Sequence record: MW584180.1
DNA from: Mycobacterium phage prophiGD15-1
Reading direction: 5' to 3' (one strand)
Length of the DNA: 64,000 bases
Shown here: piece after piece, positions 11,802-62,057 of the stretch
How positions within the stretch are numbered: position 1 is the first letter of the stretch
How the letters are laid out: each line of letters opens with the position of its first letter
Translations under genes and position numbers: made by a program
The notes under the pieces: generated by a model
The model's input: only the letters and a program-made list of their open reading frames with translations
Database searches by the model: none
What the model was told of the DNA's origin: nothing

Positions 11802-11802
11802 A

Positions 11803-12904: not shown

Positions 12905-12918
12905 GGAGGTAGTGAGAG

Positions 12919-14858: not shown

Positions 14859-14859
14859 T

Positions 14860-15400: not shown

Positions 15401-15446
15401 CTGCCTCCACCTTGCATAAGTATATCGGTTCTGATATATTAATGAG

Positions 15447-15779
15447 GTGACCGACGAAAAGCCTCTCCGCTGGATAGGTACCTCACTTGAGGACCTACGG
15501 GACTTCCCCGAAGCGGCACGGCAGGACGCCGGTTACCAACTGGATAGGGTTCAGCACGGCCTAGAGCCCCACGACTGGAAGCCAATGCCAACAGTCGGCA
15601 AGGGCTGCCGCGAGATACGCGTACGCACCGAAGACGGCGCGTACCGTGTGTTCTACGTAGCCACCCTTGGGGATGTGGTGTTCGTACTGCACAGCTTCGT
15701 CAAGAAGTCACAGAAGACTTCCCAGCAAGACATCAACACCGGTAAGGCTCGATACAAGAAAGCGCAGGAGGAACTATGA
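15447..15779 (+). CDS. higB: HigB/RelE-family (Gp49-like) toxin
   Basis: pattern KPL.W.G.S..DL..FP...R...G..L..VQ.G..P.D.KPM...G.G..E.R.....G.YRV.YV......VLH.F.KK.QKT matches Gp49-like/HigB toxins; upstream of HTH antitoxin with ATGA overlap. Confidence 0.6.
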   Translation: MTDEKPLRWIGTSLEDLRDFPEAARQDAGYQLDRVQHGLEPHDWKPMPTVGKGCREIRVRTEDGAYRVFYVATLGDVVFVLHSFVKKSQKTSQQDINTGKARYKKAQEEL

Positions 15780-16027
15780 GCGTATGGGACGACATCGCCG
15801 ACACCCCGCGCGAAGCGGAGAACCTTCGCGTGCGGTCTGAGCTGATGATGGCAATCGAAAAGAAGATCAACGAGCGCGAATGGACCCAGGTCCAGGCCGC
15901 CGAAGCACTCGGACTGACCCAGCCTCGGGTGTCGGATCTGCTGCGCGGCAAGATCTCCAAGTTCTCCTTGGATGCTCTCGTGGACATCGCTTCCGGGTTG
16001 GATGTGCACGTGAAGGTGTGCGTCTGA
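15776..16027 (+). CDS. higA: HigA-like XRE-HTH antitoxin
   Basis: QVQAAEALGLTQPRVSDLLRGKISKFSLDALVDIA is a typical HigA HTH; toxin-first gene order typical of HigBA. Confidence 0.6.
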   Translation: MSVWDDIADTPREAENLRVRSELMMAIEKKINEREWTQVQAAEALGLTQPRVSDLLRGKISKFSLDALVDIASGLDVHVKVCV

Positions 16028-16122
16028 TTGCGACACGCCGACCAGGGGATATACCCCTTAACCGCTGTCAAGTAGTAAACTGCGCATAGGCGCGACTTAC
16101 ACCCATTCTTTTAAACCCCCAT

Positions 16123-16157
16123 CGACATTTGTTCGGTGGGGGTTTTTCTATGCCCAA
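16123..16157 (+). terminator. rho-independent terminator (AACCCCC-loop-GGGGGTT + TTTTT)
   Basis: seen in sequence immediately downstream of higA. Confidence 0.6.
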
Positions 16158-16181
16158 ACGGAGGTTCCCTTATGCCTCTGT

Positions 16182-16322
16182 CTCGTGTCCGCTGCTGCAT
16201 CCCCTGTGGCCGTATCCGCTACGCCCCCTGCTCTGCAGGGTGTCGAGTAGATCCCGAGAACGACCCAACAAGCTGGACAGAACAGGTGCCGCCGAGCGAT
16301 GAAGCTGAGTAAGGAAGCGCGC
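16182..16322 (+). CDS. zinc-ribbon miniprotein (46 aa)
   Basis: CC.PCGRIRY..C..GC; GGAGG RBS. Confidence 0.35.
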
Positions 16323-16523
16323 AATACCGTCGCCGACTGCATCAGTAAGGGCATCCACCTGACGCTGGACGTTCAGTGCGATGGCGAGCCGATGGGCGGC
16401 TGGTGCGATAAGTGCGAGAAACCGTCGATGGTCGAAGTGCAACTGCGTGGCATCTCCACTGACGCCGTGTACGACCTCGGACCCGCCGTCGTATGTGCAA
16501 ACCATGAGGCTGGCGATGATTGA
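16299..16523 (+). CDS. Cys-rich hypothetical protein
   Basis: 74-aa ORF, CDGEPMGGWCDKCEK. Confidence 0.35.
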   Translation: MKLSKEARNTVADCISKGIHLTLDVQCDGEPMGGWCDKCEKPSMVEVQLRGISTDAVYDLGPAVVCANHEAGDD

Positions 16524-16767
16524 ATGTCTTGGTTGCGGCTCGACGGTGGGGCAAGACGGCGATTGCCCGCGCCCCGAACACTGCGGAAACTGCCCACCTT
16601 GGGACTGTGACGAATGCGGCCAGCAGTGCTCGATCAACACCCCTTGCGGGTGCTGGATTTTCCTTGAAGGCATGAACCTCGCCGACATCAAGGCGGTACT
16701 CGCCGCAGCCGATCTGAGTGTCAATGTGGAGGTGCCGCCATGCTCGACAGATTCTTCGCGGCACTAG
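16504..16767 (+). CDS. Cys-rich hypothetical protein
   Basis: CLGCGS...CPRPEHCGNCPPWDCDECGQQC...CGCW. Confidence 0.35.
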   Translation: MRLAMIECLGCGSTVGQDGDCPRPEHCGNCPPWDCDECGQQCSINTPCGCWIFLEGMNLADIKAVLAAADLSVNVEVPPCSTDSSRH

Positions 16768-17036
16768 CCGGCGCCATGGCCCCTCCACTCGTGGCCATGT
16801 GTGAGCGCATCGCGGATAAGAAGATCCCTGACGACACCGTGCCGAAGTTCATGGACGGCCTGCTGGATATCGCCCGCGACGGCGTTGACCGCGCCGTGAG
16901 TGTGGTGCAGACGTCCGCTGACGGTATTGCCGGTAGCGCGGAAGCTGAACTAGGTCAGCTCGGCTCGGAGATTAGGGGAGTGGTCAAAGCGGCCAACCCC
17001 ATAGATATTCTCGGCAGCCTGTTCGGGCGACGCTAG
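16740..17036 (+). CDS. hypothetical protein
   Basis: 98-aa ORF terminating in the conserved TAGACACCGC motif. Confidence 0.4.
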   Translation: MLDRFFAALAGAMAPPLVAMCERIADKKIPDDTVPKFMDGLLDIARDGVDRAVSVVQTSADGIAGSAEAELGQLGSEIRGVVKAANPIDILGSLFGRR

Positions 17037-17077
17037 ACACCGCTGATGTCGCTGCACCGCAGTAAAATTGAGGTATG
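17034..17077 (+). repeat. conserved stop-to-start intergenic motif copy 2
   Basis: TAGACACCGCTGATGTCGCTGCACCGCAGTAAAATTGAGGTATG. Confidence 0.7.
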
Positions 17078-17251
17078 AGCATTGAGACCGAGCGGCAGTT
17101 GAATCGCCGCTGCATTGAGCTGCAAGACGAGATAATCCGCTGGGGCGAGAAGGCGCAGTGGGCGCTTGAGCAAGATGACACCGGATGGTGGGGCGATGTC
17201 CTCGGTGGCATCGTCAAGCGCGGCAAGCTGATGGCAGAGAAGGGCACCTAA
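17075..17251 (+). CDS. hypothetical 58-aa protein
   Basis: ORF starting at motif ATG; below ORF-table cutoff. Confidence 0.35.
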   Translation: MSIETERQLNRRCIELQDEIIRWGEKAQWALEQDDTGWWGDVLGGIVKRGKLMAEKGT

Positions 17252-17253
17252 CG

Positions 17254-17361
17254 ATGTGCCCTCCACGCTGTCAGAACTGCATCCATCCGCAGCATGACCA
17301 CGAAGGCTGGTTTGGTCGCTGCACCCGCGACGACTGCGAATGTAAGGCAATGCAGGACTGA
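17254..17361 (+). CDS. Cys/His-rich miniprotein (35 aa)
   Basis: MCPPRCQNCIHPQHDHEGWFGRCTRDDCEC. Confidence 0.25.
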   Translation: MCPPRCQNCIHPQHDHEGWFGRCTRDDCECKAMQD

Positions 17362-17398
17362 CTTGCCCCTACAGCCTCTCCGTTCTACTATCGAACAC

Positions 17399-17644
17399 AT
17401 GTTCGACAAGGTGTCATACCGTATCGAAGGTGATGGACCCGTCACAGCGGTACTCACTTACCAAAACCGGGAGTACCGGCACACCTCCCGAACCATGTGG
17501 CTCGGACACGAAGACGGCATGCCCCAAGGCTCCATCCAACTCGACGAGCATGTGTGGGCGCGGCTACAGCGCATCAACGGAACCATAGAAGCCACCATCA
17601 CCGACTCTAAGACTGGTGAAAGCTACACCCTCACACCTGAATAG
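17399..17644 (+). CDS. hypothetical protein
   Basis: ends in TAGACACCGC motif. Confidence 0.35.
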   Translation: MFDKVSYRIEGDGPVTAVLTYQNREYRHTSRTMWLGHEDGMPQGSIQLDEHVWARLQRINGTIEATITDSKTGESYTLTPE

Positions 17645-17685
17645 ACACCGCGACTTACGCTGTAGCTCGGTAAAATTGAGGTATG
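17642..17685 (+). repeat. conserved stop-to-start intergenic motif copy 3
   Basis: TAGACACCGCGACTTACGCTGTAGCTCGGTAAAATTGAGGTATG. Confidence 0.7.
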
Positions 17686-17919
17686 GATGATCCCGAGATT
17701 GAAGTCGCTGAGGCGGTGTGTAAACGGCACAACTGGGACGGCATGATGTTTTGCGCTTGCACTGCCGCTGCTCGTGAAGCTTTGAAGCGAGTGGGCGCCG
17801 ATCTGCAATCCGTCGATGGCGTCTTAGGTCTGCTTCATCATCGAGGGCTTGTTGACTCCGAGCGCAATAGAGCTGATGTGAAAGCTGCCCTCGAAATCGT
17901 ACAGAGGTACACCCGATGA
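17683..17919 (+). CDS. hypothetical protein
   Basis: 78-aa ORF from motif ATG. Confidence 0.4.
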   Translation: MDDPEIEVAEAVCKRHNWDGMMFCACTAAAREALKRVGADLQSVDGVLGLLHHRGLVDSERNRADVKAALEIVQRYTR

Positions 17920-18191
17920 CTGAACCATCTCAAGCCCATATAGACCGGGCACGTGAACTCGGCCTCTCTTTCGATCCTTCTGATACATCGGATGAAGAGT
18001 TAAGCCGTGCTATCGCAACGTATGAGCGGGTTTACATCGAGGCGATGACCGAGAATGCTGGTAGGGACACTGATACTCCTACTGAGCGCCGCAAGATGCT
18101 GGGCGTATGGACTCAGCGCGATGAAGAAGAGGCCAAGGAAGCCGCTGAACGGCGGCGGATGTTCGGCTCCCGACGAATCCCACCCGCCTAG
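17916..18191 (+). CDS. hypothetical protein
   Basis: ATGA-coupled; ends in motif TAG. Confidence 0.4.
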   Translation: MTEPSQAHIDRARELGLSFDPSDTSDEELSRAIATYERVYIEAMTENAGRDTDTPTERRKMLGVWTQRDEEEAKEAAERRRMFGSRRIPPA

Positions 18192-18233
18192 ACACCGCTG
18201 ATTCCTCTGAAACGTCGGATAATTGAAGGTATG
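18189..18233 (+). repeat. conserved stop-to-start intergenic motif copy 4
   Basis: TAGACACCGCTGATTCCTCTGAAACGTCGGATAATTGAAGGTATG. Confidence 0.7.
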
Positions 18234-18503
18234 GACATCACCGAGAAGCCATTGACCAACCTGGCTGACACAATACATACAGCCCTGATCGGACACAGGC
18301 CGGACGACTACGCCTGCTACTACAAGCAGCTTTTCAATGTGTTTGGAGCGCCCGGCATCCCGAACACCTACGAGGCGGTACTCAAGCGTTACGGCAGGGT
18401 AATCCATCGAGAGACATTCTGGCGGCGCAAGAGCGCAGAGAAGCAATGCATCGCATGGAAGCGCTTGTATGACGCCGTCGTACTACCACCTCCACAGTCC
18501 TAG
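18231..18503 (+). CDS. hypothetical protein
   Basis: 90-aa ORF between two motif copies. Confidence 0.4.
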   Translation: MDITEKPLTNLADTIHTALIGHRPDDYACYYKQLFNVFGAPGIPNTYEAVLKRYGRVIHRETFWRRKSAEKQCIAWKRLYDAVVLPPPQS

Positions 18504-18544
18504 ACACCGCTGATCCCGTTGAAACGCGGGATAATTGAGGTATG
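18501..18544 (+). repeat. conserved stop-to-start intergenic motif copy 5
   Basis: TAGACACCGCTGATCCCGTTGAAACGCGGGATAATTGAGGTATG. Confidence 0.7.
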
Positions 18545-18709
18545 AACGACGAATTGAGCTTCCTGCTTGAGGCGTCGCCGGAAGAGTGGGATACCTTCAT
18601 TGGATGCCCACATACAGGCAAGTCCTACACGGAAGTGGGACGGCTAACCGGCGAGGTGTTCACGCGCTGCTGCGACTGTCACACGGCTTTGCCTAATCTC
18701 CCGTCCTAG
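18542..18709 (+). CDS. hypothetical 55-aa protein with C..C / C.C motifs
   Basis: ORF from motif ATG. Confidence 0.35.
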   Translation: MNDELSFLLEASPEEWDTFIGCPHTGKSYTEVGRLTGEVFTRCCDCHTALPNLPS

Positions 18710-18983
18710 CTGAATCCCTTTGGGAGGTAATCATGCTTGATGGTCAACCGTTGGGCGAGTACCCGGAACTGGGGCCGACGCACACCGCCGAGTATTTCGA
18801 GCTCCTAACACTGGCCTACTTAGCCAGGCTCATGGGTTACCACATCTAGTGCCATGCCCCTCACTGCTAACCAGCTCCGCATCCTAGAGGCGTTGCAGCG
18901 GTTACGTATAGCCCGTACTGAGGGCGATGTTGACGCCGAGCTCGTGGCCTACAGCCGCATGGATGAGCTACTGGATCGTGAAC

Positions 18984-19286
18984 CTAGGGGCATAGGTTCC
19001 GTTTCGCCGATCGCGCCATAGCCAACAGATTGGCTGGTGTCGCGTTCGGATAGTTGGAGTGCGAGGCGACCTGCTCGGGGGTTTCCCCGTTGCGCAAGTC
19101 ATTGCACATGCCGTTCCCGGCGGCCAGTAGGAACGGCCGGGACTGCCACATCACTTGAAAACCCTGCCCGGACAGTTCGTCCAGGTAGGCGTCATCGTCC
19201 GCGTACGCCGCGGGCGCGAAAACAATGCTGGCCGCTACGGCGGCTGCAGCTGCGATCTTGATCATTGGCGGATCGTAGACCTCCAC
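18984..19286 (-). CDS. secreted DUF732-like protein (minus strand)
   Basis: signal peptide IKIAAAAAVAASIVFAPAAYA, mature domain with Cys...Cys-Pro end; only confident minus-strand gene inside the phage body. Confidence 0.55.
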   Translation of the reverse strand: MEVYDPPMIKIAAAAAVAASIVFAPAAYADDDAYLDELSGQGFQVMWQSRPFLLAAGNGMCNDLRNGETPEQVASHSNYPNATPANLLAMARSAKRNLCP

Positions 19287-19394
19287 CCCGACGGGTACAG
19301 GCGAAACGGGAGATCAGATGGCCGTGCAGCACTGCGAGTACTGCGGCCGCCGCCTCCGGTACGACTGCTGCCCGCACTGTGAAGAGGGTGAGTA

Positions 19395-20657
19395 GTGCTC
19401 GGGGTAGCGATCACCACCCACAACCGCCGAGATGTCCTCCTCAACGCGTTAACGCACTGGATCGAGCACACCTCGGCTGATGTGCCAATTGTCGTTGTGG
19501 ACGACGGCAGCGACGAGCCCCTATGCCTTGAAGGCTGGCGCGGTATCCCGGTGCATCGAGTTCCTAGCGTGAGCGTTGTTCGCCATCCACAACCTATGGG
19601 GATAGCGGTGGCGAAAAACCGTTGCATCGCCGAGCTCATGGACTTGGGGTGCGACCACCTGTTTCTCGCTGACGACGATGTGTGGCCCACCGTAGACGAG
19701 TGGTGGAAGCCTTACGTTGAGTCGCCGGAACCGCATCTGTCGTTCCAGTGGCCCAGCGGCGGCCGACACAGCGTCACCCACCAAGACGAGCAGCATTTCG
19801 CCATCGGATTCCCCCGCGGAGTTCTCCTATACGCCGAACGCCGAGTGATCGACACGGTGGGCGGCATGGACACCGGATATGGGGCGCACGGCGGCGAACA
19901 CGTCGACTGGTCACAGAGAATCCACGACGCAGGGTTGACGCGATGGCCGTTCGCCGATGTCCGAGGATCACACAACTTGATCTACTCCCGCGACAAAGCC
20001 GAAGGAAACCGAACAGGTTCTTCCCGGTTTGAGCTTCCCGAGCGTGCCCGGATGTGTGAGGCCAATGGAAACCGTTGGGGCCACAAGCACCCAACATGGC
20101 CGTACTTTCCATTCCGGGGAGGCGAGGGCGTCCAGGACTACCAGTTAGGCCCGTACTTCCCGCCCGCGGAGCATTATTCGCTGCTGCGGCATGTGGTCGG
20201 TTTGAGACCTTCCGGTGTGGCTTTGGAGTTTGGGGTGGGTAAAGGCGAATCGACCCGCATCATTGCCGAGCACATGCCGGTGATCGGATTCGACAGCTTC
20301 ACCGGACTGCCTGAGGATTGGCGCGACGGATTCCCTAAGGGGTCGTTCGCGCATAAACCACCAGCCATCAACAACACTCGCCTAGTGATAGGTCGGTATG
20401 CCGACACCCTGCCAGGGTTCACGTTCCCTGAGTGTGGTTTGGTGCATATCGACTGCGACCTGTACTCGTCCACGGCAACAGCTCTGGAATATCTACAGCT
20501 CAAGCCTGGAACTTATGTCGTTTTTGATGAGTGGCACAGCTACGACGGCTGCGAAGACCACGAGATGAAAGCCTGGCGCGAATATGCCGACCGCACCGGC
20601 ATCAACTGGTGTGTGGTTGGGCATTCGCATGAGGCTTGGGCGATTCGGATCACCTAG
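19395..20657 (+). CDS. bifunctional family-2 glycosyltransferase / TylF-MycF-type SAM-dependent O-methyltransferase fusion
   Basis: N-terminus GVAITTHNRRDVLLNALTHWIEHTSADVPIVVVDDGSDEP (GT-A, DxD); C-terminal half LEFGVGKGESTRIIAEH...VHIDCDLYSSTATALEYL...LKPGTYVVFDEW (class I MT, macrocin-O-MT like). Confidence 0.65.
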   Translation: MLGVAITTHNRRDVLLNALTHWIEHTSADVPIVVVDDGSDEPLCLEGWRGIPVHRVPSVSVVRHPQPMGIAVAKNRCIAELMDLGCDHLFLADDDVWPTVDEWWKPYVESPEPHLSFQWPSGGRHSVTHQDEQHFAIGFPRGVLLYAERRVIDTVGGMDTGYGAHGGEHVDWSQRIHDAGLTRWPFADVRGSHNLIYSRDKAEGNRTGSSRFELPERARMCEANGNRWGHKHPTWPYFPFRGGEGVQDYQLGPYFPPAEHYSLLRHVVGLRPSGVALEFGVGKGESTRIIAEHMPVIGFDSFTGLPEDWRDGFPKGSFAHKPPAINNTRLVIGRYADTLPGFTFPECGLVHIDCDLYSSTATALEYLQLKPGTYVVFDEWHSYDGCEDHEMKAWREYADRTGINWCVVGHSHEAWAIRIT

Positions 20658-52710: not shown

Positions 52711-52780
52711 CTCGGTTGTCAGTTCTCAAATGACCTGTCGCATTCTCATCTAATCTGTCGCAACCGCGTGTCGTTCTCAT
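52711..52780 (+). repeat. three direct 20-bp subterminal repeats (GTTCTCAAATGACCTGTCGC / ATTCTCATCTAATCTGTCGC / GTTCTCATTTGATCTGTCGT), putative TnsB binding sites, tnsA-proximal end
   Basis: seen in sequence. Confidence 0.75.
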
Positions 52781-52806
52781 TTGATCTGTCGTACGCCTCT
52801 TAACAT

Positions 52807-53565
52807 TTGGGTGTGCAAGCGTCTCGGGCGCTGGTTGCGCCGCAGATTGCTAGTGACGTTGACGTGGAGTTCGTCGCCGATGGTCAACGCCACAGAGTAC
52901 CGCTGGTTGAGTGCGCGATGCTCAGATTTGATTTGGATTGCTCACCTGCCCGCAACTTCCCGAATTTTAGAGGTCAAAGCAACTACCCAGGCCTGTGGTG
53001 GTTTGCTACGACTGGCCAGCATGTAGGTCATGAATCCTGGCTGGAACGTGATCATCTGATGCTGCTCGATGCTGATCCGCACGTTGTGGGTGTGGCGTCG
53101 CAGCCATTTCGGCTGCATTGGCCTGGTGGCACTCACCATGTCCCGGACTACTTTGCTAGATATGCCGATGGCGGTGTGACGGTTCTTGACGTGCGCGATG
53201 ACAAGCGCATCACTGAGGATGATCAGCTCAAGTTTGATCTTTCGGAAATTGCTTGTCGCACAGTGGGTTGGGGTTACCGCCAGTTAGGTGTGCCTGATCA
53301 GGTGTTGGTGGCGAACATTCGGTGGCTATCGGGGTATAGACACCCCCGAGTGTGCCGCGAGGATGTGGCGGAGTCGTTGCTCGCGGTGTTCGCCGAACCG
53401 GCGCGGCTATTGTCTGGCGCTCAAATCGTCGGTGATCGGCTGCATGTGTTGCCGGTGCTGTTTCATTTGTTGTGGCACAGGCAGTTGTCGACAGATTTGG
53501 CTGGCGCGTTGCTATCGGAGTCGGCGGTGGTCGGCCCTGCCGGATGGTGGGCGCATTCGTGTTGA
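52807..53565 (+). CDS. tnsA: TnsA-like endonuclease
   Basis: restriction-endonuclease-like E...D...(V/L)DVRDDK signature, gene position next to the transposon end and upstream of tnsB. Confidence 0.55.
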   Translation: MGVQASRALVAPQIASDVDVEFVADGQRHRVPLVECAMLRFDLDCSPARNFPNFRGQSNYPGLWWFATTGQHVGHESWLERDHLMLLDADPHVVGVASQPFRLHWPGGTHHVPDYFARYADGGVTVLDVRDDKRITEDDQLKFDLSEIACRTVGWGYRQLGVPDQVLVANIRWLSGYRHPRVCREDVAESLLAVFAEPARLLSGAQIVGDRLHVLPVLFHLLWHRQLSTDLAGALLSESAVVGPAGWWAHSC

Positions 53566-55634
53566 GGGCAGCTGCGGTACGCGTGGGTGATGAGATCCGT
53601 TTAGCTGGTGAACGTTTCACGGTCTTATCGATCACCGATGGTGCGGCGCGATTAATCAGTGCTGTCGGCGAGCGCAGTTCGGTGCCACTGCCGGCGTTGT
53701 GCACGGACCCGTCGTTGGAATTGGTGGCAACGTCATGGCCGCCATTGTGCTCCGAAGAGGCTTTGACTGGCGTACCCCAAGAGGTGGTGGAACGGGCACG
53801 CTGGTGGGAACAGCATCTGCTTGACGTGATCACCGGCCGCTCCGGGACCGGCATGGACACTGACAGTGCTGATTTCGACCCCGCGGTGACGACGCTGCGC
53901 CGCCGGGAGATGGCCAAGCTCGCCGAACTTGCCGATGAAGGTCATGTTTTGACGTTGCGGACGCTGCAGCGCCAACGCAAGGCCTACCAGCGTGACGGGC
54001 TGCTGGGTGTGCTGGATGGGCGTTACCGGCCGAACCGGCCCGTGCATGGGCGAGTCGATCCGCGGGTGAGCGAGACGGTAGTTGGTCTTATCGAGGCCGA
54101 AACTGAGTTGTCGACGGGCACGGTGCGCCGCATGCAGCGCAAGACCGCACGGGCGTTGAAGGCTCAGTACGGCGATGAGGCACCGCAAATGCCCTCGAAG
54201 GCAACATTTTATCGTCTGGTGGGCCGATTATCTGCGGGCAAGCACACGTTCGGGTCAGCCCGCACGCGCAGGTCGTTGGCCAAGCAGCCAGACAAACCGT
54301 TCGGGACGTTGACAGTGGCCCGCCCCGGCGAGGTGGTGGAGGTCGATTCCACACCCCTGGATGTAGCGGTGCGCTTCGATGACGGCACCGTTGGCCGGGT
54401 CGAGTTGATTGGGATGGTCGACTGTGCCACCCGCACGATCGCCGCAGCGGTATTGCGGCCAACAACCACGGCGGTGGATGCGGCGCTGCTGTTGGCGCGA
54501 TCGTTGACCCCGGAGCCGATGCGCCCAGGCTGGTCTGATGCGGTGCGGATGACGGCCTCAGTGCTACCCCATCACAGTTTGACCACTCTGGATCAGCGGT
54601 TCGCGGCCGCCGCTGCCCGGCCCGTGATCGCCCCAGAAACCATTGTGATCGATCACGGCAAAGCGTATCTGTCGCAGACATTTTCGCAGGCCTGCTGCAC
54701 GCTGGGGATCAATTTGCAGCCCGCGCACCCGGATGAGCCGACGGACAAACCGAAGATCGAACGCACTATCGAGTCGGTCGGCACGATGTTCGCCTCCGAG
54801 GTGGCCGGATATCTGGGGTCCTCGGTGGAGCGGCGCGGCAAGCACGCCGAAAAACGTGCCGTGTGGTCGATCGTGCAGTTGCAAGCGCTACTGGATGAAT
54901 GGATTGTCACCGCCTGGCAGAACCGGCCCCACGACGGGCTGCGCGACCCCTTAACTCCGGGAAAGACGTTGACTCCCAATGAGAAATACGCAGCCCTGGT
55001 CGAGGTGGCCGGGTATGTGCCGGTGGCCTTGAGCGGTGATGACTACATCGAACTGCTGCCGACGCGGTGGCGCAAGATCAACTCCTACGGGGTGCGGATC
55101 AACAATCGCCACTACGACGCCAAAGCCTTCAACCCCTACCGCGGCCAATCTTCGGGGGTCGGTAAGAAGAACAATAGGTGGGAAGTGCATTTCGACCCGT
55201 GCGATGTGTCCCGGGTTTGGGTGCGCAATCACCACGAATCGGGCTGGATCCAGGCCAACTGGACGCACCTGCGGACCGCGCCGGTGCCGTTCGGGGAAAC
55301 GATCTGGAAGCAGAGCCAACAGATCCTGGCCGAGCGCGGCCAGCGTGCCGCGACGCAAGCCGAGATCGCCGAAGCGGCCGAAGAATTGCTGACTCGGGCC
55401 GCTGCCGGGCCGCCAGAGCAGCTCGTGGACAAGAAGATCCGCCGGAAGCTGGTTCGCGCCCAGCACTCCACCGTGACACCGCTGTGGCCACGCCCAGCAC
55501 CCGATTTACCCGCCGACGGCCCTGTGGTGGCCGATCGCGGCGATAGGGACAACGACGATGTGATTGATGTGGCGGCAGTGGTGCCGCTTCCGGTGTTCGA
55601 TGCCCGCAAGGAGGCCAAATTGTGGCGACTGTAA
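53545..55634 (+). CDS. tnsB: TnsB/TniA-like DDE transposase (Mu-type, rve core)
   Basis: VVEVDSTPLDV (D) ... VIDHGKAYLS (D) ... E; ~700 aa. Confidence 0.75.
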
Positions 55635-56671
55635 ATAGATTCGAGGCCGTCAACCCGCTCGATGATCGCCGCCAGCCCACCACCACCTTGGAGGGCTGGC
55701 GGCGTTTCGTTGAGGCCGATCCACCCGAGTTCACGCTCCTGGACGATACGCAGTGGCGCAGTCTGGATGTGCGGGACCGGATGCTCTACGACGAGGCCCG
55801 AATCGCCCATCACTCCGAACTGGTCGTGGTCACCACGTCGGCGATCGCCCGGATCAACAACGAAGGCCGGCTGCTGACCCTGCTCAATCAGTGCGAGATC
55901 GGAGCCCGCCGCGGTTTGATCATTTCCGGGGATGCGGCCACCGGGAAGACCACGGCCATCAAACAGATGGGCCGCACCCATGAACTGCGGGTGCGGGGAC
56001 GCCTGACCTACGACGCCACGTACGACGCCGTCGCGGGCCGTATCCCGGTGGTATACGTGACGGCCCCGCCCAAGGGCTCACCACGCAAACTGGCGATGGA
56101 ATTCGCCCGTTTCCTGGGGCTGCCGATGACTATGAACGCCCGTGCGAACGTCACCGACATCGCCGACGCGGTCTGCCAAGTCCTCATCGATGCCCGCACC
56201 GACATCGTGGTTGTCGACGAGATCCACAACCTGAACCTGGAAACCCGCGCCGGAGAAGACCTCTCGGATCATCTCAAATATTTCACCGAACACCTGCCCG
56301 CTACGTTCATCTACGCCGGCATCGACGTCGAACGTTCCGGGGTATTCACAGGTACCCGCGGAAAACAACTCGCTGGACGCTGCGGAGTTATCCACACCCA
56401 GGCCTTCCCCTACAACGAGGAATGGATCTCGCTGGTGGCAGGGATGGAGAACACGTTGCGACTGCACCACCACGAACCCGGAACCCTTGTCGCCGACGCC
56501 AAATACTTGCATCGGCGCACCAACGGCATGATCGGCTCGCTGGCGCACCTGATCCGCTCAGCAGCTATCCGTTCCATCATCGACGAGACCGAAGCCGTCA
56601 CCCGGGCACTGATGGATGCCACCCTGCTCGACTACGCCGCGCAAAGCGCTGCGGCCCGAACCGCCAGCTGA
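55622..56671 (+). CDS. tnsC: TnsC/TniB-like AAA+ ATPase
   Basis: Walker A LIISGDAATGKTTAI, Walker B VVVDEIHNL. Confidence 0.7.
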   Translation: MATVNRFEAVNPLDDRRQPTTTLEGWRRFVEADPPEFTLLDDTQWRSLDVRDRMLYDEARIAHHSELVVVTTSAIARINNEGRLLTLLNQCEIGARRGLIISGDAATGKTTAIKQMGRTHELRVRGRLTYDATYDAVAGRIPVVYVTAPPKGSPRKLAMEFARFLGLPMTMNARANVTDIADAVCQVLIDARTDIVVVDEIHNLNLETRAGEDLSDHLKYFTEHLPATFIYAGIDVERSGVFTGTRGKQLAGRCGVIHTQAFPYNEEWISLVAGMENTLRLHHHEPGTLVADAKYLHRRTNGMIGSLAHLIRSAAIRSIIDETEAVTRALMDATLLDYAAQSAAARTAS

Positions 56672-57510
56672 TGAACACCGCCACCGCCGCAGGACGCGCC
56701 TGGCCGGCCGGGCCGCGTCAACGCTTACCACGTGTAGTGACCCCATTCCGCACCGAGACAGTGAGTTCGTATATCGACCGGCTAGCCCACGCCAACCACC
56801 TCACCCGAGGCCGGTTGCAGTACCACGTCGCCGCAGGCACCTACCAGACCCGCGCCGACTGGCTCGCCGTCGCCACCGGAATCGCCGAAAACATCCTGCG
56901 CGAACGGCTCATTGGGTTCGGAGCGGCCAACGGCACCAACGCCAAACAACAAGCCCGGGTACGGCCCGCCTGCCGGCTGTGCATGGCCCGTCGCGGTGTC
57001 TACGAGCCCGTCCACTGCTGGCTGCCCGCGTACGAAACTGTATGTTTTCGCCACTTACGCTGGATCGGCCCCGGCGCGGCCACCTGGGAAGACCAACACG
57101 ACCTGAGCAATCACCCCGATATCGTGGTCGCCGCCCGCCGCCACCGCCAGCTGATCCGAGCCCACCGCGACCTCGCCGGCAGCGCCTTGTCCGAGGCCCG
57201 CCACATCCTGACCTGGTGGTCCCGGGTCAACCAAGACAGCGGCGACGACCAGACAGACCCGACCACGTATCTGCAGGCCTACCCAGACCTGATCACGATC
57301 GCTACCGTGCTGGCCGATCACCGCCACCAAGTCGCCGCCGGTCCCTGCACCAGGCATCCGATCTGGTCTGAGCACCTGCTGGGTTTGATCAACACACACG
57401 CAACCACCATCCGCGACGACCCCCGGCCTCTACAGCACTGGATCGACGACCAACGCATCATCGCCCGCATCCGGCCACCACGGCACAAATCCGCCTGGTC
57501 AGCACCCTGA
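56671..57510 (+). CDS. tniQ: TniQ/TnsD-like target-selection protein
   Basis: N-terminal PFRTETVSSYIDRLAHANHL is the TniQ signature; followed by Cys/His cluster (CRLC...C...H). Confidence 0.55.
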   Translation: MNTATAAGRAWPAGPRQRLPRVVTPFRTETVSSYIDRLAHANHLTRGRLQYHVAAGTYQTRADWLAVATGIAENILRERLIGFGAANGTNAKQQARVRPACRLCMARRGVYEPVHCWLPAYETVCFRHLRWIGPGAATWEDQHDLSNHPDIVVAARRHRQLIRAHRDLAGSALSEARHILTWWSRVNQDSGDDQTDPTTYLQAYPDLITIATVLADHRHQVAAGPCTRHPIWSEHLLGLINTHATTIRDDPRPLQHWIDDQRIIARIRPPRHKSAWSAP

Positions 57511-58051
57511 TTTCCGCCTCGAGCACCTGCTGGCAACGACACGCGACCTGAGGAAGCACAAGCTGATTTCTCTTTTCTTCCTATTACCAGCCGAAGAAGG
57601 GTACGGCGGCACCCGCAACTGGGGAGAGTGATGTGCCGCTTGTTGTGTCGCCCCGCTGCTATCTGCTGGCCTGCTTGTAGGGAGCCGCATCGGGTCGCCG
57701 CTGATGCCAGATCGGTGGGATCGATCGGGTTCTTTTCAGTGTGCCGGGATGCTTCTGAGGTTCTCGTGAGGCTGTTTCTGTAGCTGTTGACGCTGTTGAG
57801 TGTGTCCGGTTAGGGAGGTCCGTCAGTAGTGCGTGGCATGCGCAAAATCGTTCCAAGGACTCTCAATCACCCAAGTGATGTTGTCGCCGCGATTCGTGCA
57901 CGGTGAGAGCGCCTGAAACCGCGCTACCCGACCTGGGCTGTCCAAGCCGGAGTATCCTGGACGTAGACGGATATCTAGTACCTGCCTACTCATAGGCGCG
58001 GCACCGTCGAACTATTCGGCACCGATTACGGGCCGAGGCTAGGAGCGTCTC
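57511..58051 (+). other. 540-bp non-coding region inside transposon (lower GC), candidate promoter/ncRNA region upstream of cargo operon
   Basis: no ORF with codon bias; T-rich patches. Confidence 0.3.
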
Positions 58052-58477
58052 ATGGCGCATCAGATATTTTGTCCACAACCACTCCAGTCGGCTCTGCGCC
58101 TTCATCTGGATCCGAAAACTGGATACGCCGATGGAGCTTGGTGCCCACGATCGAAGGATCTATCGGTCGAGGTTCTGCCGTTGCTTACGCGACTTAGCCT
58201 CGATTTGGGTCCCATTGATCGGATTACCTATCGAGCTGGGGAGTGGGCACCCTCCTCGCGGAGGGTACTTTTCCTCAACCGTCTGGTTCACCTGGGTTGG
58301 TCACTTCTGCAGCCCGCCAGCACCATTAGCGTTCGAGGGACGAACGGCGCACATTTGACCCTGCTGATTGTCCCCCCTTCCAGGAAATCGCATTCGGAAG
58401 CAGAGGATCAATGCGATTTTGGCGGTAGATCCGACCGGGTGCCTAAGTCGCAATCAGCCGGACCGACAACATCATGA
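58052..58477 (+). CDS. DUF5994-like protein, paralogue A (DGAWCPRS motif)
   Basis: shares LRL.L.P...DGAWWPRS.DL...LP.LL..L...LG.I.R..YR..EW ... LLV.PP with three neighbours. Confidence 0.55.
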   Translation: MAHQIFCPQPLQSALRLHLDPKTGYADGAWCPRSKDLSVEVLPLLTRLSLDLGPIDRITYRAGEWAPSSRRVLFLNRLVHLGWSLLQPASTISVRGTNGAHLTLLIVPPSRKSHSEAEDQCDFGGRSDRVPKSQSAGPTTS

Positions 58478-58944
58478 TCAGCGCGGTCACATCGGCGGTA
58501 GAGACACTCGACTGCGACTGCGACGACTCGATTCGTCTTCGACTAAAGCCCGATGGTGACTGGAGCGGACATATCGACGGCGCATGGTGGCCGCGCTCAC
58601 AGGACCTAAATCAAGACTTACCAGCAGTTTTGGATGCTGTAGCTTCCCGGTTAGGGACCATCAAGCGCGTGATCTACCGCATCACCGAATGGGACACAGC
58701 GCCGAAACAACTGTGCTACTGGGGTCGTATGGTGTCGTTAGACGGGTACCGTTACCAGAGGCCAGACACCATCTACATCAGCGATCTAGACCATCGTCGA
58801 CTGGTACTGCTGGTTGTCCCTCCGATGACCGACCCGCATCATGCCCACGACGTGATGACTAGAGCTGCCGAACCGGGCAGCACATGTAGCCCAACAGCAT
58901 TGCTGTCAATCGAACCATTGGCGGCAGCACGCAGAACAGGGTGA
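58474..58944 (+). CDS. DUF5994-like protein, paralogue B (DGAWWPRS motif)
   Basis: ATGA-coupled to A; same family motif. Confidence 0.55.
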   Translation: MISAVTSAVETLDCDCDDSIRLRLKPDGDWSGHIDGAWWPRSQDLNQDLPAVLDAVASRLGTIKRVIYRITEWDTAPKQLCYWGRMVSLDGYRYQRPDTIYISDLDHRRLVLLVVPPMTDPHHAHDVMTRAAEPGSTCSPTALLSIEPLAAARRTG

Positions 58945-59014
58945 TGACCTTCACGGGCTGCCTGGATCGCAGACCCGGGATCGAAAGTCGACCCCGGCTT
59001 TGAGTAGTTATCGC

Positions 59015-59095
59015 ATGGCACAAGGCACCGTGGAGTGGTTCAACGCCGAAAGGGATTCGGGTTCATCACTCCCTGACAGTGGCAGTCAGCTTTGA
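59015..59095 (+). pseudogene. remnant of cold-shock protein gene (CspA N-terminus MAQGTVEWFNAE then 1-bp deletion)
   Basis: atggcacaaggcaccgtggagtggttcaacgccgaa matches the conserved csp 5' end; frame breaks in the A-run. Confidence 0.5.
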
Positions 59096-59415
59096 CGAAC
59101 AAGCCGGTGATCGTGGCCCGCAGGCTGTTTTCAGTGCAAACTGTCTAAATCGTCGGCACGAATCGAGCTGGCTGTTCCAGTGGCAGCCAGCTCGATCGCG
59201 GAGCATCGTTAATACCGTTGCCCGATCGCGACCCTTTGGGCGCGGCCCCGCCGCGCGAATCCCATCATGAAATTGGCACAGTTGGCGAACTTTGTTGTGG
59301 TCAAACGCATATGCCAGCTGGTCCCATCTGAGCTTGGCGGCACCTATCGATAGTCGTCGCGTCCGGGACTAACTAAGAATCTGGCATTGAGTAACCGTCA
59401 CGAGGGTTGAATCCC

Positions 59416-59862
59416 TCAAGCAGCCAAGATTATTCGTAGGGCCGCAGTCACCTGGTCCTGACTGGAGGAATCAAGTAGGGGCATCTGTGCAGTCAGACGC
59501 ATGATCCTTCGAGCGAGGAGCTTGTTGGTGCGTGCCGGCACCATGAGCATGCGGACCGTTCGATACTCGCCCCGGAGCGTGACCACCCAATGGAACGGCC
59601 GATTTGCGAGGTACTGAGGCATCGCAACCGACCTCATGCAGGAACGCGACGAGCCCGGCTTCCAGTTCAGTGAGACCTGACTGACAGTGCCAATGTGCTC
59701 GAATAGCTCGTCGATCAGGGGCGACAACTCCCGGGCAATCAGTCCGTCGTCCTGGGGCCACCAAGCCCCGTCCATTCTGCCGGTCCTGCTCGGCCCTAAC
59801 GTGAAGCGAACCGGTGAACCAGCATATTCAGCCTGCATCATACGTACTTCCCTGTCGCTCAA
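59416..59862 (-). CDS. DUF5994-like protein, paralogue C (DGAWWPQD motif)
   Basis: same family pattern, minus strand. Confidence 0.5.
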   Translation of the reverse strand: MSDREVRMMQAEYAGSPVRFTLGPSRTGRMDGAWWPQDDGLIARELSPLIDELFEHIGTVSQVSLNWKPGSSRSCMRSVAMPQYLANRPFHWVVTLRGEYRTVRMLMVPARTNKLLARRIMRLTAQMPLLDSSSQDQVTAALRIILAA

Positions 59863-59968
59863 CGGGACTCAGACAACGGACCTCAAACGCACCGCACCGC
59901 GATAGGATCGCTAACGGCACGGTTGGTGAATGGTTGACACTTTCAACAGATTCAAATCACAGCGCGGG

Positions 59969-60160
59969 TCATCGGATCTTCTCCGGAACCGAGTCCAGCG
60001 CGTGCAACACCTGGACTGCAGCGATCTGGGCAACATCGTTGTCAAGCGTTGACGATGCCATCAGCGCCTGGACCACCAATTCAACGCGCTTCTCGTAGGG
60101 AGTCTGGAACGTGATCGTAGAGTCCATGACCTTTGTCCTGTTCAGTCGGAACGGTTTCAA
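59969..60160 (-). CDS. hypothetical 63-aa protein between paralogues C and D
   Basis: ORF co-oriented with C and D. Confidence 0.3.
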   Translation of the reverse strand: MKPFRLNRTKVMDSTITFQTPYEKRVELVVQALMASSTLDNDVAQIAAVQVLHALDSVPEKIR

Positions 60161-60196
60161 GTACCGCGATGGTGCGGTTGTTGTGACTGCCGCGCA

Positions 60197-60736
60197 TTAT
60201 CGGCGCCTGGTGCTCACAGAGCGATTGGTTCGATGTTCAGCGCCTAACGTCCCACCTTCGGTGTCCCATCGGTCTTGCGCCTCAAACATGTCGGTACAGA
60301 CGGGCATGTCGTGAGCTGGTAGCAGCTGAGCGACAGTTGCGCAGCTGCCCGGTGCTGCCGCAGCCATCATGGCGCTGTGAGCACCACTTGCCTGGGCATC
60401 GGGGGCGATTACCAAGAGGTTCAGATGGATCCCATGAGCACCTTGGATACTGATTGTGTTAGCTGGCTGAATGAGTGACCAGTTCAAATGTGCGAGGCGA
60501 TCCCGAAACAGCATGCGCCGCGAGCTCGATGTCCACTCTGACACTCGGTAAACCACGCGGTCAATGGTGCCCAAGCGAACAGTAAGTACCCGGAGCAGCG
60601 ATGGCAGCTCGATCATCAAGTCTTTCGAGTAAGGCCACCAGGCGCCGTCGACATATCCACTAGGTGACGCTTTTGGCTTTAACCGAAGACGCACGGCAGG
60701 CCCGCATCGTGGTTTTGAAAACAGCTGACGCGTCAT
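60197..60736 (-). CDS. DUF5994-like protein, paralogue D (DGAWWPYS motif)
   Basis: closest paralogue of A (VRLRLKP...DGAWWP.SKDL...LP.LL..L...LG.IDR..YR..EW.SSSRR.LF..RL.HL.WSL.QPA.TISI.G..G.HL.LLVI.P). Confidence 0.55.
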   Translation of the reverse strand: MTRQLFSKPRCGPAVRLRLKPKASPSGYVDGAWWPYSKDLMIELPSLLRVLTVRLGTIDRVVYRVSEWTSSSRRMLFRDRLAHLNWSLIQPANTISIQGAHGIHLNLLVIAPDAQASGAHSAMMAAAAPGSCATVAQLLPAHDMPVCTDMFEAQDRWDTEGGTLGAEHRTNRSVSTRRR

Positions 60737-61371
60737 CGGACGCTCCTTGCTTTGGCTCCGCGCACGGGGCCGAATCGTCGGCACGGTCACACCCATGGAT
60801 GAGCGGGCACCAAATATCTCGCCGTACCCTCACCCTACCCCCATTCCTCTGGAAGGAGCACATAAGCAGCGGACTAGTTTCGGGCAGCACTTGCGGATTG
60901 CACCTTGTGCCGCTGACAATTTACGGTCAGGGCCCCGCTGACCCGGTCGGGTGCGTCTCGGCTGGCCTGTATGGGCTGCGATGCGTGGACGGTTGCTTGT
61001 TTTCCACCGACGACAGCCCAGGACACAACGATTAGTTCAAAATCGAGTACGCAAGATTATTCGTACACGAATGGCAAACGGACAACAGATCAAGTCAAGC
61101 TGCCTTAGATCAAACTGATCAAGGAACCAAGCGCCAATATCTTCAATCGATCTGCGGTACCGCAGGTCAAGTACCGACAGCACCTGCCTTGGCCGTAGCC
61201 TTGGCAGGAAACTGACTGGTTCAACGTCAATCCGAGGTCACCGCTGGTTTCAAACACCCGACACAAGACCCTCGCCTCAGGTGCGCTCCACCGCAACACC
61301 ACCGGATTGCGCGGAACCGTTCTGGCATCAAGCCAGTGACGTTGGCGACGCGAGCCCGCTCGAGTGGACTT

Positions 61372-61491
61372 GTGACAGATCAAATGAGAACCACTGGGCC
61401 ATCAACGGTGAAATGAGTTCTCGCTTAATCTGTCGCAACCCTGTTCAGTAGCGGCTTTTGTCGAATAATCTGCGACAGATCATTTGAGAAC
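61372..61491 (+). repeat. three 20-bp subterminal repeats at the distal transposon end (61372-61391 inverted, 61417-61436 direct, 61472-61491 inverted), spaced ~45-55 bp
   Basis: seen in sequence: reverse complements match GTTCTCATTTGATCTGTCAC and GTTCTCAAATGATCTGTCGC. Confidence 0.7.
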
Positions 61492-61496
61492 GGACA

Positions 61497-62057
61497 TCGG
61501 TTGACCGTAACCGAAAAAGCGGCCGAAACTGTTACTGCCTCGAATGTACGCGTAGGACCAACCGGGCGTCGTATAGCCGGAACTTCGAGGGTGGGAAAGC
61601 CCGGAAGGCGGCAGCCTACAAGCGTGACCGTGAGAAGTTTTTGGCGCGAAACAGGCGCTGGCGGGCTGATAATTACGAACGCGAGCTGGAAACGAACCGT
61701 AAGTACTACCACGATAACAAGGCTCAAGTTCGGGCCTGGCACAAGCGCTACTACGAAGCTAATAAGGATGCAGCTTTCGCGGCAAGTCAGCGGCGGCGAG
61801 CTCGCATGCGGTCCGCTGCTACCGCCCCGTTCTCCATGGACGATCTGCGGATGAAGTGGCGCTACTGGGGTAATAGGTGCTGGATCTGCGGCGGGAATCC
61901 CACTGCGACTGATCACGTCAAGCCACTGAGCAAAGGCGGTGCCCATATGCTGTGCAACCTCAGGCCGATCTGCAAACCTTGCAACTCGGCAAAGCATGAC
62001 AAGTGGCCGTATCAGCGTCCGATACCCGCTGATACTTCCGAAGATGTCGCGAGCTAG
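61497..62057 (+). pseudogene. 3' portion of the disrupted HNH endonuclease gene
   Basis: ...RWRYWGNRCWICGGNPTATDHVKPLSKGGAHMLCNLRPICKPCNSAKHD is the HNH motif; in frame with 52625-52706. Confidence 0.7.

Follow-up and report, generated by a model that had tools for sequence, protein, structure and literature searches.

Why should a Tn7-like transposon, itself lodged in a prophage of Mycobacterium abscessus, carry four related genes of a single uncharacterized family? The question is raised by prophiGD15-1 (record MW584180.1), of which a stretch of 64,000 nucleotides, here termed the window, was analyzed. Between tniQ and the right end of the transposon, at positions 58052–60736, lie four paralogues of the DUF5994 family (PF19457). 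Defense genes are common in Tn7-like cargo and in prophage accessory regions, and a preliminary description of the array proposed that it is a transposon accessory system, perhaps a partner of TniQ or a targeting adaptor, or else a defense module. The evidence below makes it rather probable that the cargo instead consists of passenger genes, captured and kept under selection, that belong to an actinobacterial stress response and the products of which act as hetero-oligomers.

The transposon and its insertion site

The host of the transposon is a MabA1-cluster M. abscessus prophage, in which the insertion splits an HNH endonuclease gene. The features of the element outside its cargo are as follows.

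52712–52716 and 61497–61501: left and right copies of TCGGT, the 5-bp target-site duplication, recognized by comparison with the empty site in L002
52717–61496: complete Tn7-like transposon, 8,780 bp, inserted in the prophage HNH endonuclease gene
52723–52796, plus strand: left-end array of three ~23-nt repeats (TTCTCA..ATCTGTCGCA), repeat family D1
52807–53565, plus strand: tnsA-like endonuclease subunit (NCBIfam NF033179 TnsA_like_Actin, E 3e-84)
53562–55634, plus strand: tnsB-like DDE transposase (Pfam Mu-transpos_C and rve)
55622–56671, plus strand: tnsC/tniB-like AAA+ ATPase (Pfam TniB, E 2e-15; AAA_22)
56671–57510, plus strand: tniQ-like target selector (Pfam TniQ, E 4e-4, below the gathering score)
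57549–57903: spacer segment of 355 bp, present in prophiGD15-1 and absent from the prophiGD20-1 copy
61374–61496: right-end array of TnsB-site-like repeats (families D1, I2, I4 and I10)

The two ends, at 52717 (TGTCAG...) and 61496 (...GGACA), form a 26-nt terminal inverted repeat that is 92% complementary, and the flanks are 100% identical to prophiGD22-1, where the sequence is uninterrupted. The left-end repeats are presumed to be TnsB binding sites, and the right-end units lie at 61374–61394, 61418–61440 and 61471–61496. The TniQ assignment is supported by the PADLOC TniQ profile (E 5e-7), and the tnsB-like gene is labeled a transposase in MW584158. A single operon thus holds a TnsA-type endonuclease, a DDE TnsB, an AAA+ TnsC/TniB and a TniQ/TnsD-type selector. 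The element shares with Tn7 and Tn7-like transposons the tnsA-tnsB-tnsC-tniQ order, TGT...ACA inverted ends with several internal transposase-site repeats at both ends, the 5-bp duplication and the position of the cargo between tniQ and the right end, and it falls in the actinobacterial subgroup defined by NF033179 TnsA_like_Actin. TnsE and CRISPR-Cas are both absent from it. No Rfam match was obtained between 52000 and 62000.

The element has been described before. The passages of Dedrick et al. (2021, mBio, PMC8092298) that deal with it report an 8.5–8.8-kb transposon in M. abscessus prophiGD20-1 and prophiGD15-1, with 25-bp imperfect inverted repeats, a 5-bp duplication and an HNH-gene target, all of which match the present analysis. 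They describe its insertion and imprecise loss, state that it must be lost before the phage grows lytically, and leave the cargo unanalyzed. The prophiGD20-1 copy is the same element, 99–100% identical to the window, and the insertion point found here is the one reported there for prophiGD15-1/41-1/59-1, which is identical to the locus in the GD59 chromosome (L106).

Unlike Tn7, the element has no single orientation-specific site of the attTn7/glmS kind. Its insertions are grouped in two regions, with the exact base pair differing and either orientation in use, and six different 5-bp duplications are found across its copies. Two insertion points in the HNH gene are 32 bp apart by our measurement (25 bp in the relevant passage of PMC8092298), and at least four insertions, in both orientations, fall within one ~600-bp chromosomal region. 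Site- and orientation-specific insertion beside a conserved gene, as in the TnsD/TniQ pathway, is not what these copies display. This pattern concerns the mode of targeting and not the cargo.

The cargo genes

The cargo region contains five intact genes and one broken gene.

58052–58477, plus strand: DUF5994 paralogue A, 141 aa, pI 9.3 (Pfam PF19457, E 6e-24, 84.6 bits)
58474–58944, plus strand: DUF5994 paralogue B, 156 aa, pI 5.7 (Pfam PF19457, E 1e-34, 119.4 bits)
~59016–59148, plus strand: csp (CSD) pseudogene, its reading frame broken by a frameshift and an internal deletion
59416–59841, minus strand: DUF5994 paralogue C, 141 aa, pI 10.4 (Pfam PF19457, E 2e-15, 57.1 bits)
59969–60127, minus strand: DUF6307 small protein, 52 aa, pI 4.65 (Pfam PF19826, E 9e-15, 55.3 bits)
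60197–60736, minus strand: DUF5994 paralogue D, 179 aa, pI 10.1 (Pfam PF19457, E 2e-32, 111.9 bits)

This is the arrangement given in the preliminary description, with A and B on the plus strand, overlapping by ATGA and so translationally coupled, and D, a small ORF and C on the minus strand. The assignment to DUF5994 made there is borne out by the profile search, in which all four proteins score well above the PF19457 gathering threshold (26.3 bits) and cover positions 1–103 of the 112-position model. The small ORF, between C and D and downstream of D, exceeds the PF19826 threshold of 25 bits and covers all 43 positions of that model. The DGAWWP signature (R..L.P...DGAWWP...L...G...W) is real, with 14 columns invariant across A, B, C and D, and A and D, earlier called near-mirror paralogues, are indeed the closest pair (53% identity over 115 residues; 30–42% for other pairs).

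Some starts allow alternatives. C could begin at an upstream TTG at 59862, giving 148 aa, and a longer form of the DUF6307 ORF reaches 60160. The ORF of D is open to 60796, and the start preceded by AGGAG is 60736, with AAGGAGCG just before it. D is a long form that ends in the motif RWDTEGG. An ORF annotated in prophiGD20-1 as gp119 is probably not a gene; a 4-bp indel shifts its frame in prophiGD15-1.

Pfam and NCBIfam annotation leaves the TnsA/TnsB/TnsC(TniB)/TniQ element with no intact cargo beyond the four DUF5994 genes and the DUF6307 gene, as the preliminary description had it for the DUF5994 array. Scans of the cargo proteins against NCBIfam, PADLOC and PHROGs gave no match, and none of A, B, C, D or DUF6307 matched a PADLOC-DB v2 profile at E ≤ 0.1. 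The cargo region, including the sequence upstream of the cargo genes, has no match to the SigF-type promoter pattern GTTT-N14-18-GGGTA, and a generic promoter and terminator scan found sites no more often than in shuffled sequence.

Probable chromosomal origin of the cargo

The cargo is collinear with chromosomal loci that lack transposase genes and is 87–90% identical to them. The segment 57866–58945, comprising A, B and the region upstream, is 89.6% identical in nucleotides to positions 9390–10466 of an M. chelonae contig (L003), and 59971–61002, comprising DUF6307, D and the region upstream of D, is 87.1% identical to positions 10847–11891 of the same contig. The first of these blocks starts with the last 38 bp of the 355-bp spacer. 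At the protein level, B is 82% identical to its M. chelonae counterpart (P0002). The order in M. chelonae, A-B followed by DUF6307-D, is that of the transposon, and in six M. chelonae contigs the locus is bounded by a WYL regulator on one side and HSP20/MerR on the other, and tns genes are lacking nearby.

C has its counterpart elsewhere. The segment 58968–59880 is 82–91% identical in nucleotides to an M. saopaulense sequence (L097), adjoining csp gene included, and the C gene itself is 85.5% identical to its chromosomal orthologue there. Orthologues of C are single-copy chromosomal genes that adjoin an acyl-ACP desaturase gene or CSD/HSP20/MerR genes. From this similarity, the cold-shock gene was captured together with C and has since decayed. 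C may have entered the A-B/D block as a separate insertion, or may have been captured within one contiguous donor locus. The convergent A-B/C arrangement also occurs in one contig without the transposon, and the M. saopaulense C-csp pair lies at what is apparently the same HSP20-MerR locus as A-B/DUF6307-D of M. chelonae.

The TnsA-TnsB-TnsC-TniQ element would thus have picked up a chromosomal gene block from bacteria of the Mycobacteroides chelonae group, and would now carry it among M. abscessus genomes, including into the prophage prophiGD15-1. As such it provides an example of how a Tn7-like element may capture a block of chromosomal genes and disseminate it, both across a species of clinical importance and into a prophage.

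The DUF5994 family and its gene neighbors

The family comprises about 2,260 sequence clusters, with PF19457 as the only domain. Homologues are found in Mycobacteriaceae, Rhodococcus, Nocardia and Streptomyces, and A–D (141–179 aa) fit the actinobacterial single-domain profile of ~140–200 aa. In sequence, the cargo proteins do not differ from the uncharacterized actinobacterial families DUF5994 and DUF6307, and database copies already bear the name "DUF5994 family protein". A full-text literature search on DUF5994, DUF6307 and their motifs returned no relevant paper, experiment or expression data, in agreement with the earlier statement that DUF5994 has no assigned function.

Most members are chromosomal singletons or pairs in neighborhoods of stress genes. 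At 12 DUF5994 loci the neighbors include genes for CSD (4 loci), HSP20 (2), Usp (2), slipin/Band 7 (2) and fatty-acid desaturases (6), as well as Mn catalase, hemerythrin, GAF-ANTAR, CsbD and alanine dehydrogenase. In a control set of 1.36 Mb of actinobacterial DNA, the same probe proteins, minus MerR, matched only five genes, a comparison that is partly circular, as the probes were drawn from the same loci. The link to stress is guilt by association over about eight independent loci. These neighborhoods suggest that DUF5994 is probably part of how actinobacteria respond to temperature, membrane or stationary-phase stress; the lack of a SigF-type promoter upstream of the cargo genes counts against this.

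Cargo, transposition and defense

A targeting adaptor that works with TniQ and replaces TnsE or CRISPR-Cas would account for the position of the DUF5994 genes directly downstream of tniQ, for their retention in every copy of the element, and for a regional target preference (the HNH pair and the ~600-bp cluster) for which TniQ alone is perhaps insufficient. Such an adaptor would be expected in related elements. A sample of 41 related elements was compiled, each with tnsABC-tniQ in collinear order and room for 5 kb or more of cargo after tniQ, and DUF5994 is found in only one; the other 40 do without it, and the family is therefore no conserved component downstream of tniQ. Their cargo varies widely, its 144 ORFs yielding 112 Pfam families, and a related M. 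abscessus prophage element bears a two-component system in place of DUF5994. As a family, these transposons do not require DUF5994. Moreover, the genes are a near-verbatim copy of the transposase-free chromosomal loci, most relatives reside in the stress neighborhoods described above, and DNA-binding or nuclease signatures are absent from the cargo proteins in Pfam and NCBIfam. In all likelihood the cargo genes contribute neither to transposition nor to the choice of target, and an accessory targeting system is very improbable indeed.

A module for anti-phage defense, superinfection exclusion or anti-defense, serving the transposon or the prophage, would fit the usual contents of such regions, the multi-gene make-up of the array, and the presence of similar modules on a second Tn7-like element and on a Nocardia plasmid of 41 kb that also contains phage-like genes. 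PADLOC and PHROGs are silent on these proteins, however, and no enzymatic or nucleic-acid-binding domain is recognized in them. Of 50,697 phage records, a single one contains DUF5994, by way of the same transposon. The chromosomal neighbors are stress and metabolic genes rather than restriction, toxin or abortive-infection genes. Enrichment of the family near transposases or defense islands, on which the preliminary description had staked its proposal, is essentially nil. A defense role is improbable, and the array is most probably not a new transposon-targeting or defense system; the practical value of this result is mostly negative but clarifying.

The family is mobile elsewhere. Pairs or triplets occur on an unrelated Tn7-like element of M. 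aquaticum (L026) and on the Nocardia plasmid, and the module is also present on several megaplasmids. Because DUF5994 is found on two unrelated Tn7-like elements and a plasmid, it could be selected for transfer for a reason other than stress. The DUF5994 pairs with DUF6307 might then be a self-contained, repeatedly mobilized module, for example a new small-protein system of stress tolerance or conflict. We regard this as rather unlikely; were it true, the fitness of the pathogen M. abscessus would be affected.

Paired genes and a candidate mode of action

DUF5994 genes also form coupled or convergent pairs in Nocardia, M. parmense, M. branderi and M. aquaticum, and one natural protein (P0260) is a tandem DUF5994-DUF5994 fusion. 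In the transposon, the isoelectric points are complementary, with A at 9.3 and B at 5.7, and D at 10.1 and DUF6307 at 4.65. The translational coupling of A and B, the opposite pI values, the recurring pairs and the fusion together lead to the proposal that DUF5994 proteins probably act as hetero-oligomers in which a basic protein joins an acidic one, A with B and D with DUF6307.

Small pairs of opposite charge, translationally coupled in the case of A and B and present in multiple copies on mobile elements and plasmids, would also be expected of toxin-antitoxin-like addiction modules that stabilize the element. Unlike known toxin-antitoxin pairs, though, A and B are paralogues that share one fold; many DUF5994 genes are solitary or have an alanine dehydrogenase or slipin gene as their coupled neighbor; C has no partner; and no toxin-antitoxin family is matched in Pfam or NCBIfam. 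Addiction is thus decidedly improbable.

In the stress-passenger reading, the likely place for a ligand or partner to bind is the invariant Asp-Gly-Ala-Trp-Trp-Pro loop. The C-terminal RW(D/E)x(D/E)GG tail of long forms such as D, which occurs in 63 of 285 family members and lies outside the Pfam model, may add to this binding. The element would then supply M. abscessus with an extra, mobile dose of the DUF5994 module, and this mobile copy is a convenient natural gain of function for stress-phenotype tests. The pairing habit, the tandem fusion, the tail and the stress-gene neighborhood are new for DUF5994, and together with the basic/acidic pairs and the DGAWWP loop they give the family testable features.

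Predicted structures

Structure models suggest that DUF5994 proteins are small, soluble, single-domain alpha/beta proteins, with a predicted fold of a beta-hairpin bearing the DGAWWP loop, a 16-residue helix, a five-stranded sheet and C-terminal helices. The AlphaFold model of B has a pLDDT of 82. A model of D was made to see whether its tail docks on the domain, and the RWDTEGG tail has a pLDDT below 55, too low a confidence for its position to be read.

The fold search proposed in the preliminary description was run, and it returned no significant solved relative; a PDB sequence-profile search with the cargo proteins likewise gave no match. A fold with no significant solved relative offers no functional anchor. 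HK97-fold capsid and encapsulin shell proteins were retrieved by Foldseek at E 0.15 and a TM score of ~0.3, which is not significant; they are twice the size of DUF5994 proteins, share 2–14% sequence identity with them, and give no significant structural match over the A and P domains. The resemblance is a lead and not a classification. Within the mobilized-module reading, a fold faintly like the HK97 E-loop/P-domain may bind a partner or ligand through the DGAWWP loop together with the RW(D/E)x(D/E)GG tail.

Selection on the cargo

The cargo might also be a neutral hitch-hiker, functionless in M. abscessus and heading for decay. Decay is visible in the element, as the csp gene that came in with C has become a pseudogene, the spacer varies among copies (the 355-bp indel and an IS256-family insertion), and M. 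franklinii has a decayed copy of the element without the cargo. The cargo genes themselves argue against this reading, to which we assign a low probability. The cargo is identical at seven distinct genomic places, and each copy examined has the five genes intact. Values of dN/dS are 0.30 for A, 0.35 for B, 0.14 for C, 0.13 for DUF6307 and 0.20 for D, although most of the divergence behind them may predate capture. The five genes have been kept intact by purifying selection while csp decayed, and between prophiGD15-1 and prophiGD20-1 the sole indel within a cargo gene, of 6 bp in B, is in frame.

The transposon and its cargo

The final 16 kb of the window form the right arm of a MabA1-cluster prophage of Mycobacterium abscessus, with genes for lysin A, holin, lysin B, an Mre11-like protein and HNH, and this arm is 99–100% identical to prophiGD20-1 (MW584158) and sister prophages. 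In sister prophages such as prophiGD22-1 the HNH gene is whole (648 bp), and alignment to this empty site delimits an insertion of 8,780 bp (52717–61496). The inserted element starts with TGTCAG and finishes with GGACA, its 26-nt terminal inverted repeats are accompanied by three more repeats of ~23 nt at each end, and it is bordered by a 5-bp target duplication, TCGGT (52712–52716 and 61497–61501). Its transposition genes code for a TnsA-like endonuclease (NCBIfam NF033179, E 3e-84), a TnsB of the Mu/rve type, a TnsC of the TniB/AAA+ type and a TniQ. In Dedrick et al. 2021 (PMC8092298), the sections on the element report a transposon of 8,452 bp within the prophiGD20-1 HNH gene, together with a similar one a few bp leftward in prophiGD15-1, 41-1 and 59-1; these sections contain no discussion of cargo. 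The window has the prophiGD15-1 type of junction, and in sequence it matches the GD59 chromosome locus exactly.

Features of the cargo
58052–58477, + strand: A, DUF5994 protein, ATGA overlap with B
58474–58944, + strand: B, DUF5994 protein, ATGA overlap with A
~59016–59148, + strand: cold-shock protein (csp) pseudogene, between B and C
59416–59841/59862, − strand: C, DUF5994 protein
59969–60127: 52-aa DUF6307 protein, between C and D
60197–60736, − strand: D, DUF5994 protein

The four DUF5994 ORFs lie where the preliminary description had placed them, and their membership of DUF5994, which that description had suggested, is confirmed by search: all four score 57–119 bits against the 26.3-bit cutoff of PF19457. 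Fourteen alignment columns are invariant across A–D, DGAW.P among them, and A and D, proposed to be near-mirror paralogues, are the closest pair (53% identity over 115 residues). The csp pseudogene opens with MAQGTVEWFNAE, after which a frameshift follows; it has an internal deletion of 75 bp and is homologous to the csp adjoining the C orthologue in M. saopaulense. The spacer between tniQ and A varies: a 355-bp segment (57549–57903) is present in the window and missing from prophiGD20-1, and in strain UC22 (CP012044) the same spacer holds an IS256-family transposase (Transposase_mut; compared locus L107, 14765–16030).

Chromosomal origin and maintenance of the cargo

Tn7-like elements commonly bear passenger cargo, which is ordinary for them. 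B has its best homologue in M. chelonae (82% amino acid identity), and six contigs of that species have it in one locus order, namely an A-like gene, a coupled B-like gene, and then convergent DUF6307 and D-like genes. This locus is flanked by a WYL regulator on one side and HSP20/MerR on the other, with polA nearby, and no tns genes occur there in any of the six contigs. Two blocks of the window match it, 57866–58945 at 89.6% and 59971–61002 at 87.1% nucleotide identity, and both contain the non-coding DNA upstream of A and D. The intervening 1 kb, which comprises C and the csp remnant, matches a chromosomal locus of M. saopaulense at 82–91% identity, and at that locus a C orthologue adjoins csp, HSP20 and MerR. 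C orthologues are also found as lone genes next to an acyl-ACP desaturase in M. chelonae, M. abscessus and metagenomic relatives, and in one chromosomal contig C is convergent with B and A. Because of these matching loci, the cargo is a copy of ordinary M. chelonae-group chromosomal DNA. Taken as a whole, the reading as passenger cargo of chromosomal origin is very probable. Its source may have been either one unsampled donor locus or two.

Comparison of the five cargo genes with their chromosomal orthologues gives dN/dS values of 0.13–0.35, which indicates purifying selection. The sole intragenic indel relative to prophiGD20-1 is 6 bp long and in frame, the remaining indels being intergenic; all five genes are intact at seven distinct genomic places bearing the element, and proteins identical to B and to D are recorded on ~100 contigs each. 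It is quite unlikely that the cargo is a functionless hitch-hiker. The native chromosomal C-like gene of M. abscessus (the cluster of protein P0256) is often called as truncated, at 59–93 aa, unlike the transposon copies, which are full length; these calls may reflect decay of the native gene. The element would supply M. abscessus with a mobile extra copy of the DUF5994 module.

Cargo of related elements

For a survey of related elements, 22 TnsA-like proteins were aligned and one genome per species was scanned, yielding 80 loci. Collinear tnsA-B-C-tniQ genes detectable by the window's proteins are present at 49 of the 80, and 41 of these 49 extend at least 5 kb beyond tniQ. Only one of the 41 elements is positive for the DUF5994 profile; apart from it and the window's own element, none at the 80 loci bears the family. 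This one occupies an entire contig of Mycobacterium aquaticum RW6 (L026, 1–10792) as a complete, distinct 10.8-kb Tn7-like element, ~68% identical to the window's in the tns genes at the nucleotide level, with inverted repeats at either end and a cargo of a PhoU-like protein, a cold-shock protein and a divergent DUF5994 pair. In the other elements, the 144 proteins encoded beyond tniQ give hits to 112 different Pfam families, including TetR, GNAT, glyoxalase, methyltransferases, MerR, hydrolases, MFS and APH. DUF5994 was found by tblastn in 1 of 50,697 phage records, the one with this transposon; of 72,556 plasmids, 20 have it, and most of these are megaplasmids of Rhodococcus and Streptomyces.

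The preliminary description had proposed that the array is an accessory system, for example a TniQ partner or targeting adaptor. With one DUF5994-positive element in 41 and no PADLOC or PHROGs match to any cargo protein, the family is essentially not enriched close to transposases or in defence islands, and the proposal is not supported. A targeting adaptor is extremely unlikely, and a defence or anti-defence module has a low probability. The cargo is instead a captured chromosomal block, maintained intact and dispensable for the transposon family. That DUF5994 is a self-contained, repeatedly mobilised module with a novel activity, as its plasmid occurrences and the M. aquaticum element might suggest, is unlikely.

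Two other relatives were seen. In prophiGD05-1 (MW584169; L112, 8119–16469), a second related Tn7-like element of M. abscessus adjoins the lysis cassette; it has a truncated tnsA and a tnsB ~78% identical in nucleotides, and it carries a two-component system and a membrane protein as cargo. Mycobacteroides franklinii CV002 (L014, 9911–14077) holds a decayed relict of the window's element, with tnsA 97.5% and the right end 86% identical, the cargo gone, and tnsB, tnsC and tniQ mostly gone.

The DUF5994 family

When 1.84 billion representative proteins were searched with a profile, 2,264 DUF5994 clusters matched at E <= 1e-3, and among the matches listed the proteins are of 100–300 aa with a single domain. 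The AlphaFold model of B (mean pLDDT 82, core >90) consists of a β-hairpin with the DGAWWP loop, a 16-residue helix, five strands and C-terminal helices, and the model of D has the same order at lower confidence. The DGAWWP loop is predicted as the likely site of binding. Of 285 family members, 63, D among them (residues ~150–162), carry a C-terminal motif, (A)AQxRW(D/E)x(D/E)GG, beyond the Pfam model and at a fixed distance of ~128 residues past the WWP motif. At the level of sequence it defines a long-form subtype, in which the tail may add to the putative binding; no publication on the RW(D/E)x(D/E)GG motif was found.

Coupled or convergent DUF5994 pairs are also present in M. parmense, in M. 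aquaticum, in M. branderi, where DUF6307 is close by, and in N. farcinica, where a 41-kb plasmid has a coupled pair plus a third copy. Partners in the window have opposite charge, with pI values of 9.3 for A and 5.7 for B, and 10.1 for D and 4.65 for the DUF6307 protein. A 298-aa metagenomic representative, P0260, is a true tandem DUF5994–DUF5994 fusion with a DGAWWPR motif in each half, giving Rosetta-stone support for paired function. Together, the recurrent pairs, opposite pI and fusion suggest that DUF5994 proteins form hetero-oligomers. That such pairs are toxin–antitoxin-like is very unlikely. DUF5994 proteins would be small cytoplasmic proteins that assemble as basic/acidic hetero-oligomers.

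Stress-gene neighbourhoods

Twelve non-transposon DUF5994 loci were collected, several of them orthologous to one another. Fatty-acid desaturase genes are near DUF5994 at six of these and cold-shock protein genes at four, while HSP20 with MerR, Usp, and slipin/Band 7 each occur at two. Further neighbours are Mn catalase, hemerythrin, four GAF-ANTAR genes, WS/DGAT, CsbD and glutamate–cysteine ligase, and at one locus alanine dehydrogenase is translationally coupled to DUF5994. The same probe proteins, MerR excluded, matched only five genes in 1.36 Mb of control DNA around TnsA loci, a comparison that is indicative and carries no statistic, as the probes were drawn from DUF5994 loci and several loci are orthologous. 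DUF5994 may have a role in how actinobacteria respond to temperature, membrane or stationary-phase stress; such a role is possible, if tentative. The combined reading, captured passenger cargo encoding stress-response hetero-oligomers, is somewhat probable.

The element itself is published, and databases already label the proteins "DUF5994 family protein". New are the donor loci and csp pseudogene, the pairing, fusion, C-terminal motif and stress neighbourhood of the family, and the negative outcome for the accessory-system idea.

Insertion sites of the element

Element sites compared
Window: 52712–52716/61497–61501
L001 (locus with the same element): 2749 and 11200
L107–L111 (likewise): element at 9905–18684 or 9905–20067

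At least six independent insertions are distinguished, each with a different 5-bp duplication. The TCGGT and ACTGT insertions are in the phage HNH gene, 32 bp apart and in the same orientation. Those with AAGGG, CCAAC, CCAAA and CCAGC are in a single ~600-bp chromosomal region, in both orientations, flanked by DUF3297/yaeQ and a two-component system. BLAST found no similarity between the phage HNH and chromosomal target regions. The insertions show a regional preference, in contrast to classical Tn7, which uses a single attachment site in one orientation. In GCA_900141265.1 (L110, element at 9905–18684), the element is joined on its left to the prophage HNH gene (the TCGGT junction) and on its right to the chromosomal hot region, and the duplications do not match, which suggests that recombination between two element copies rearranged the chromosome.
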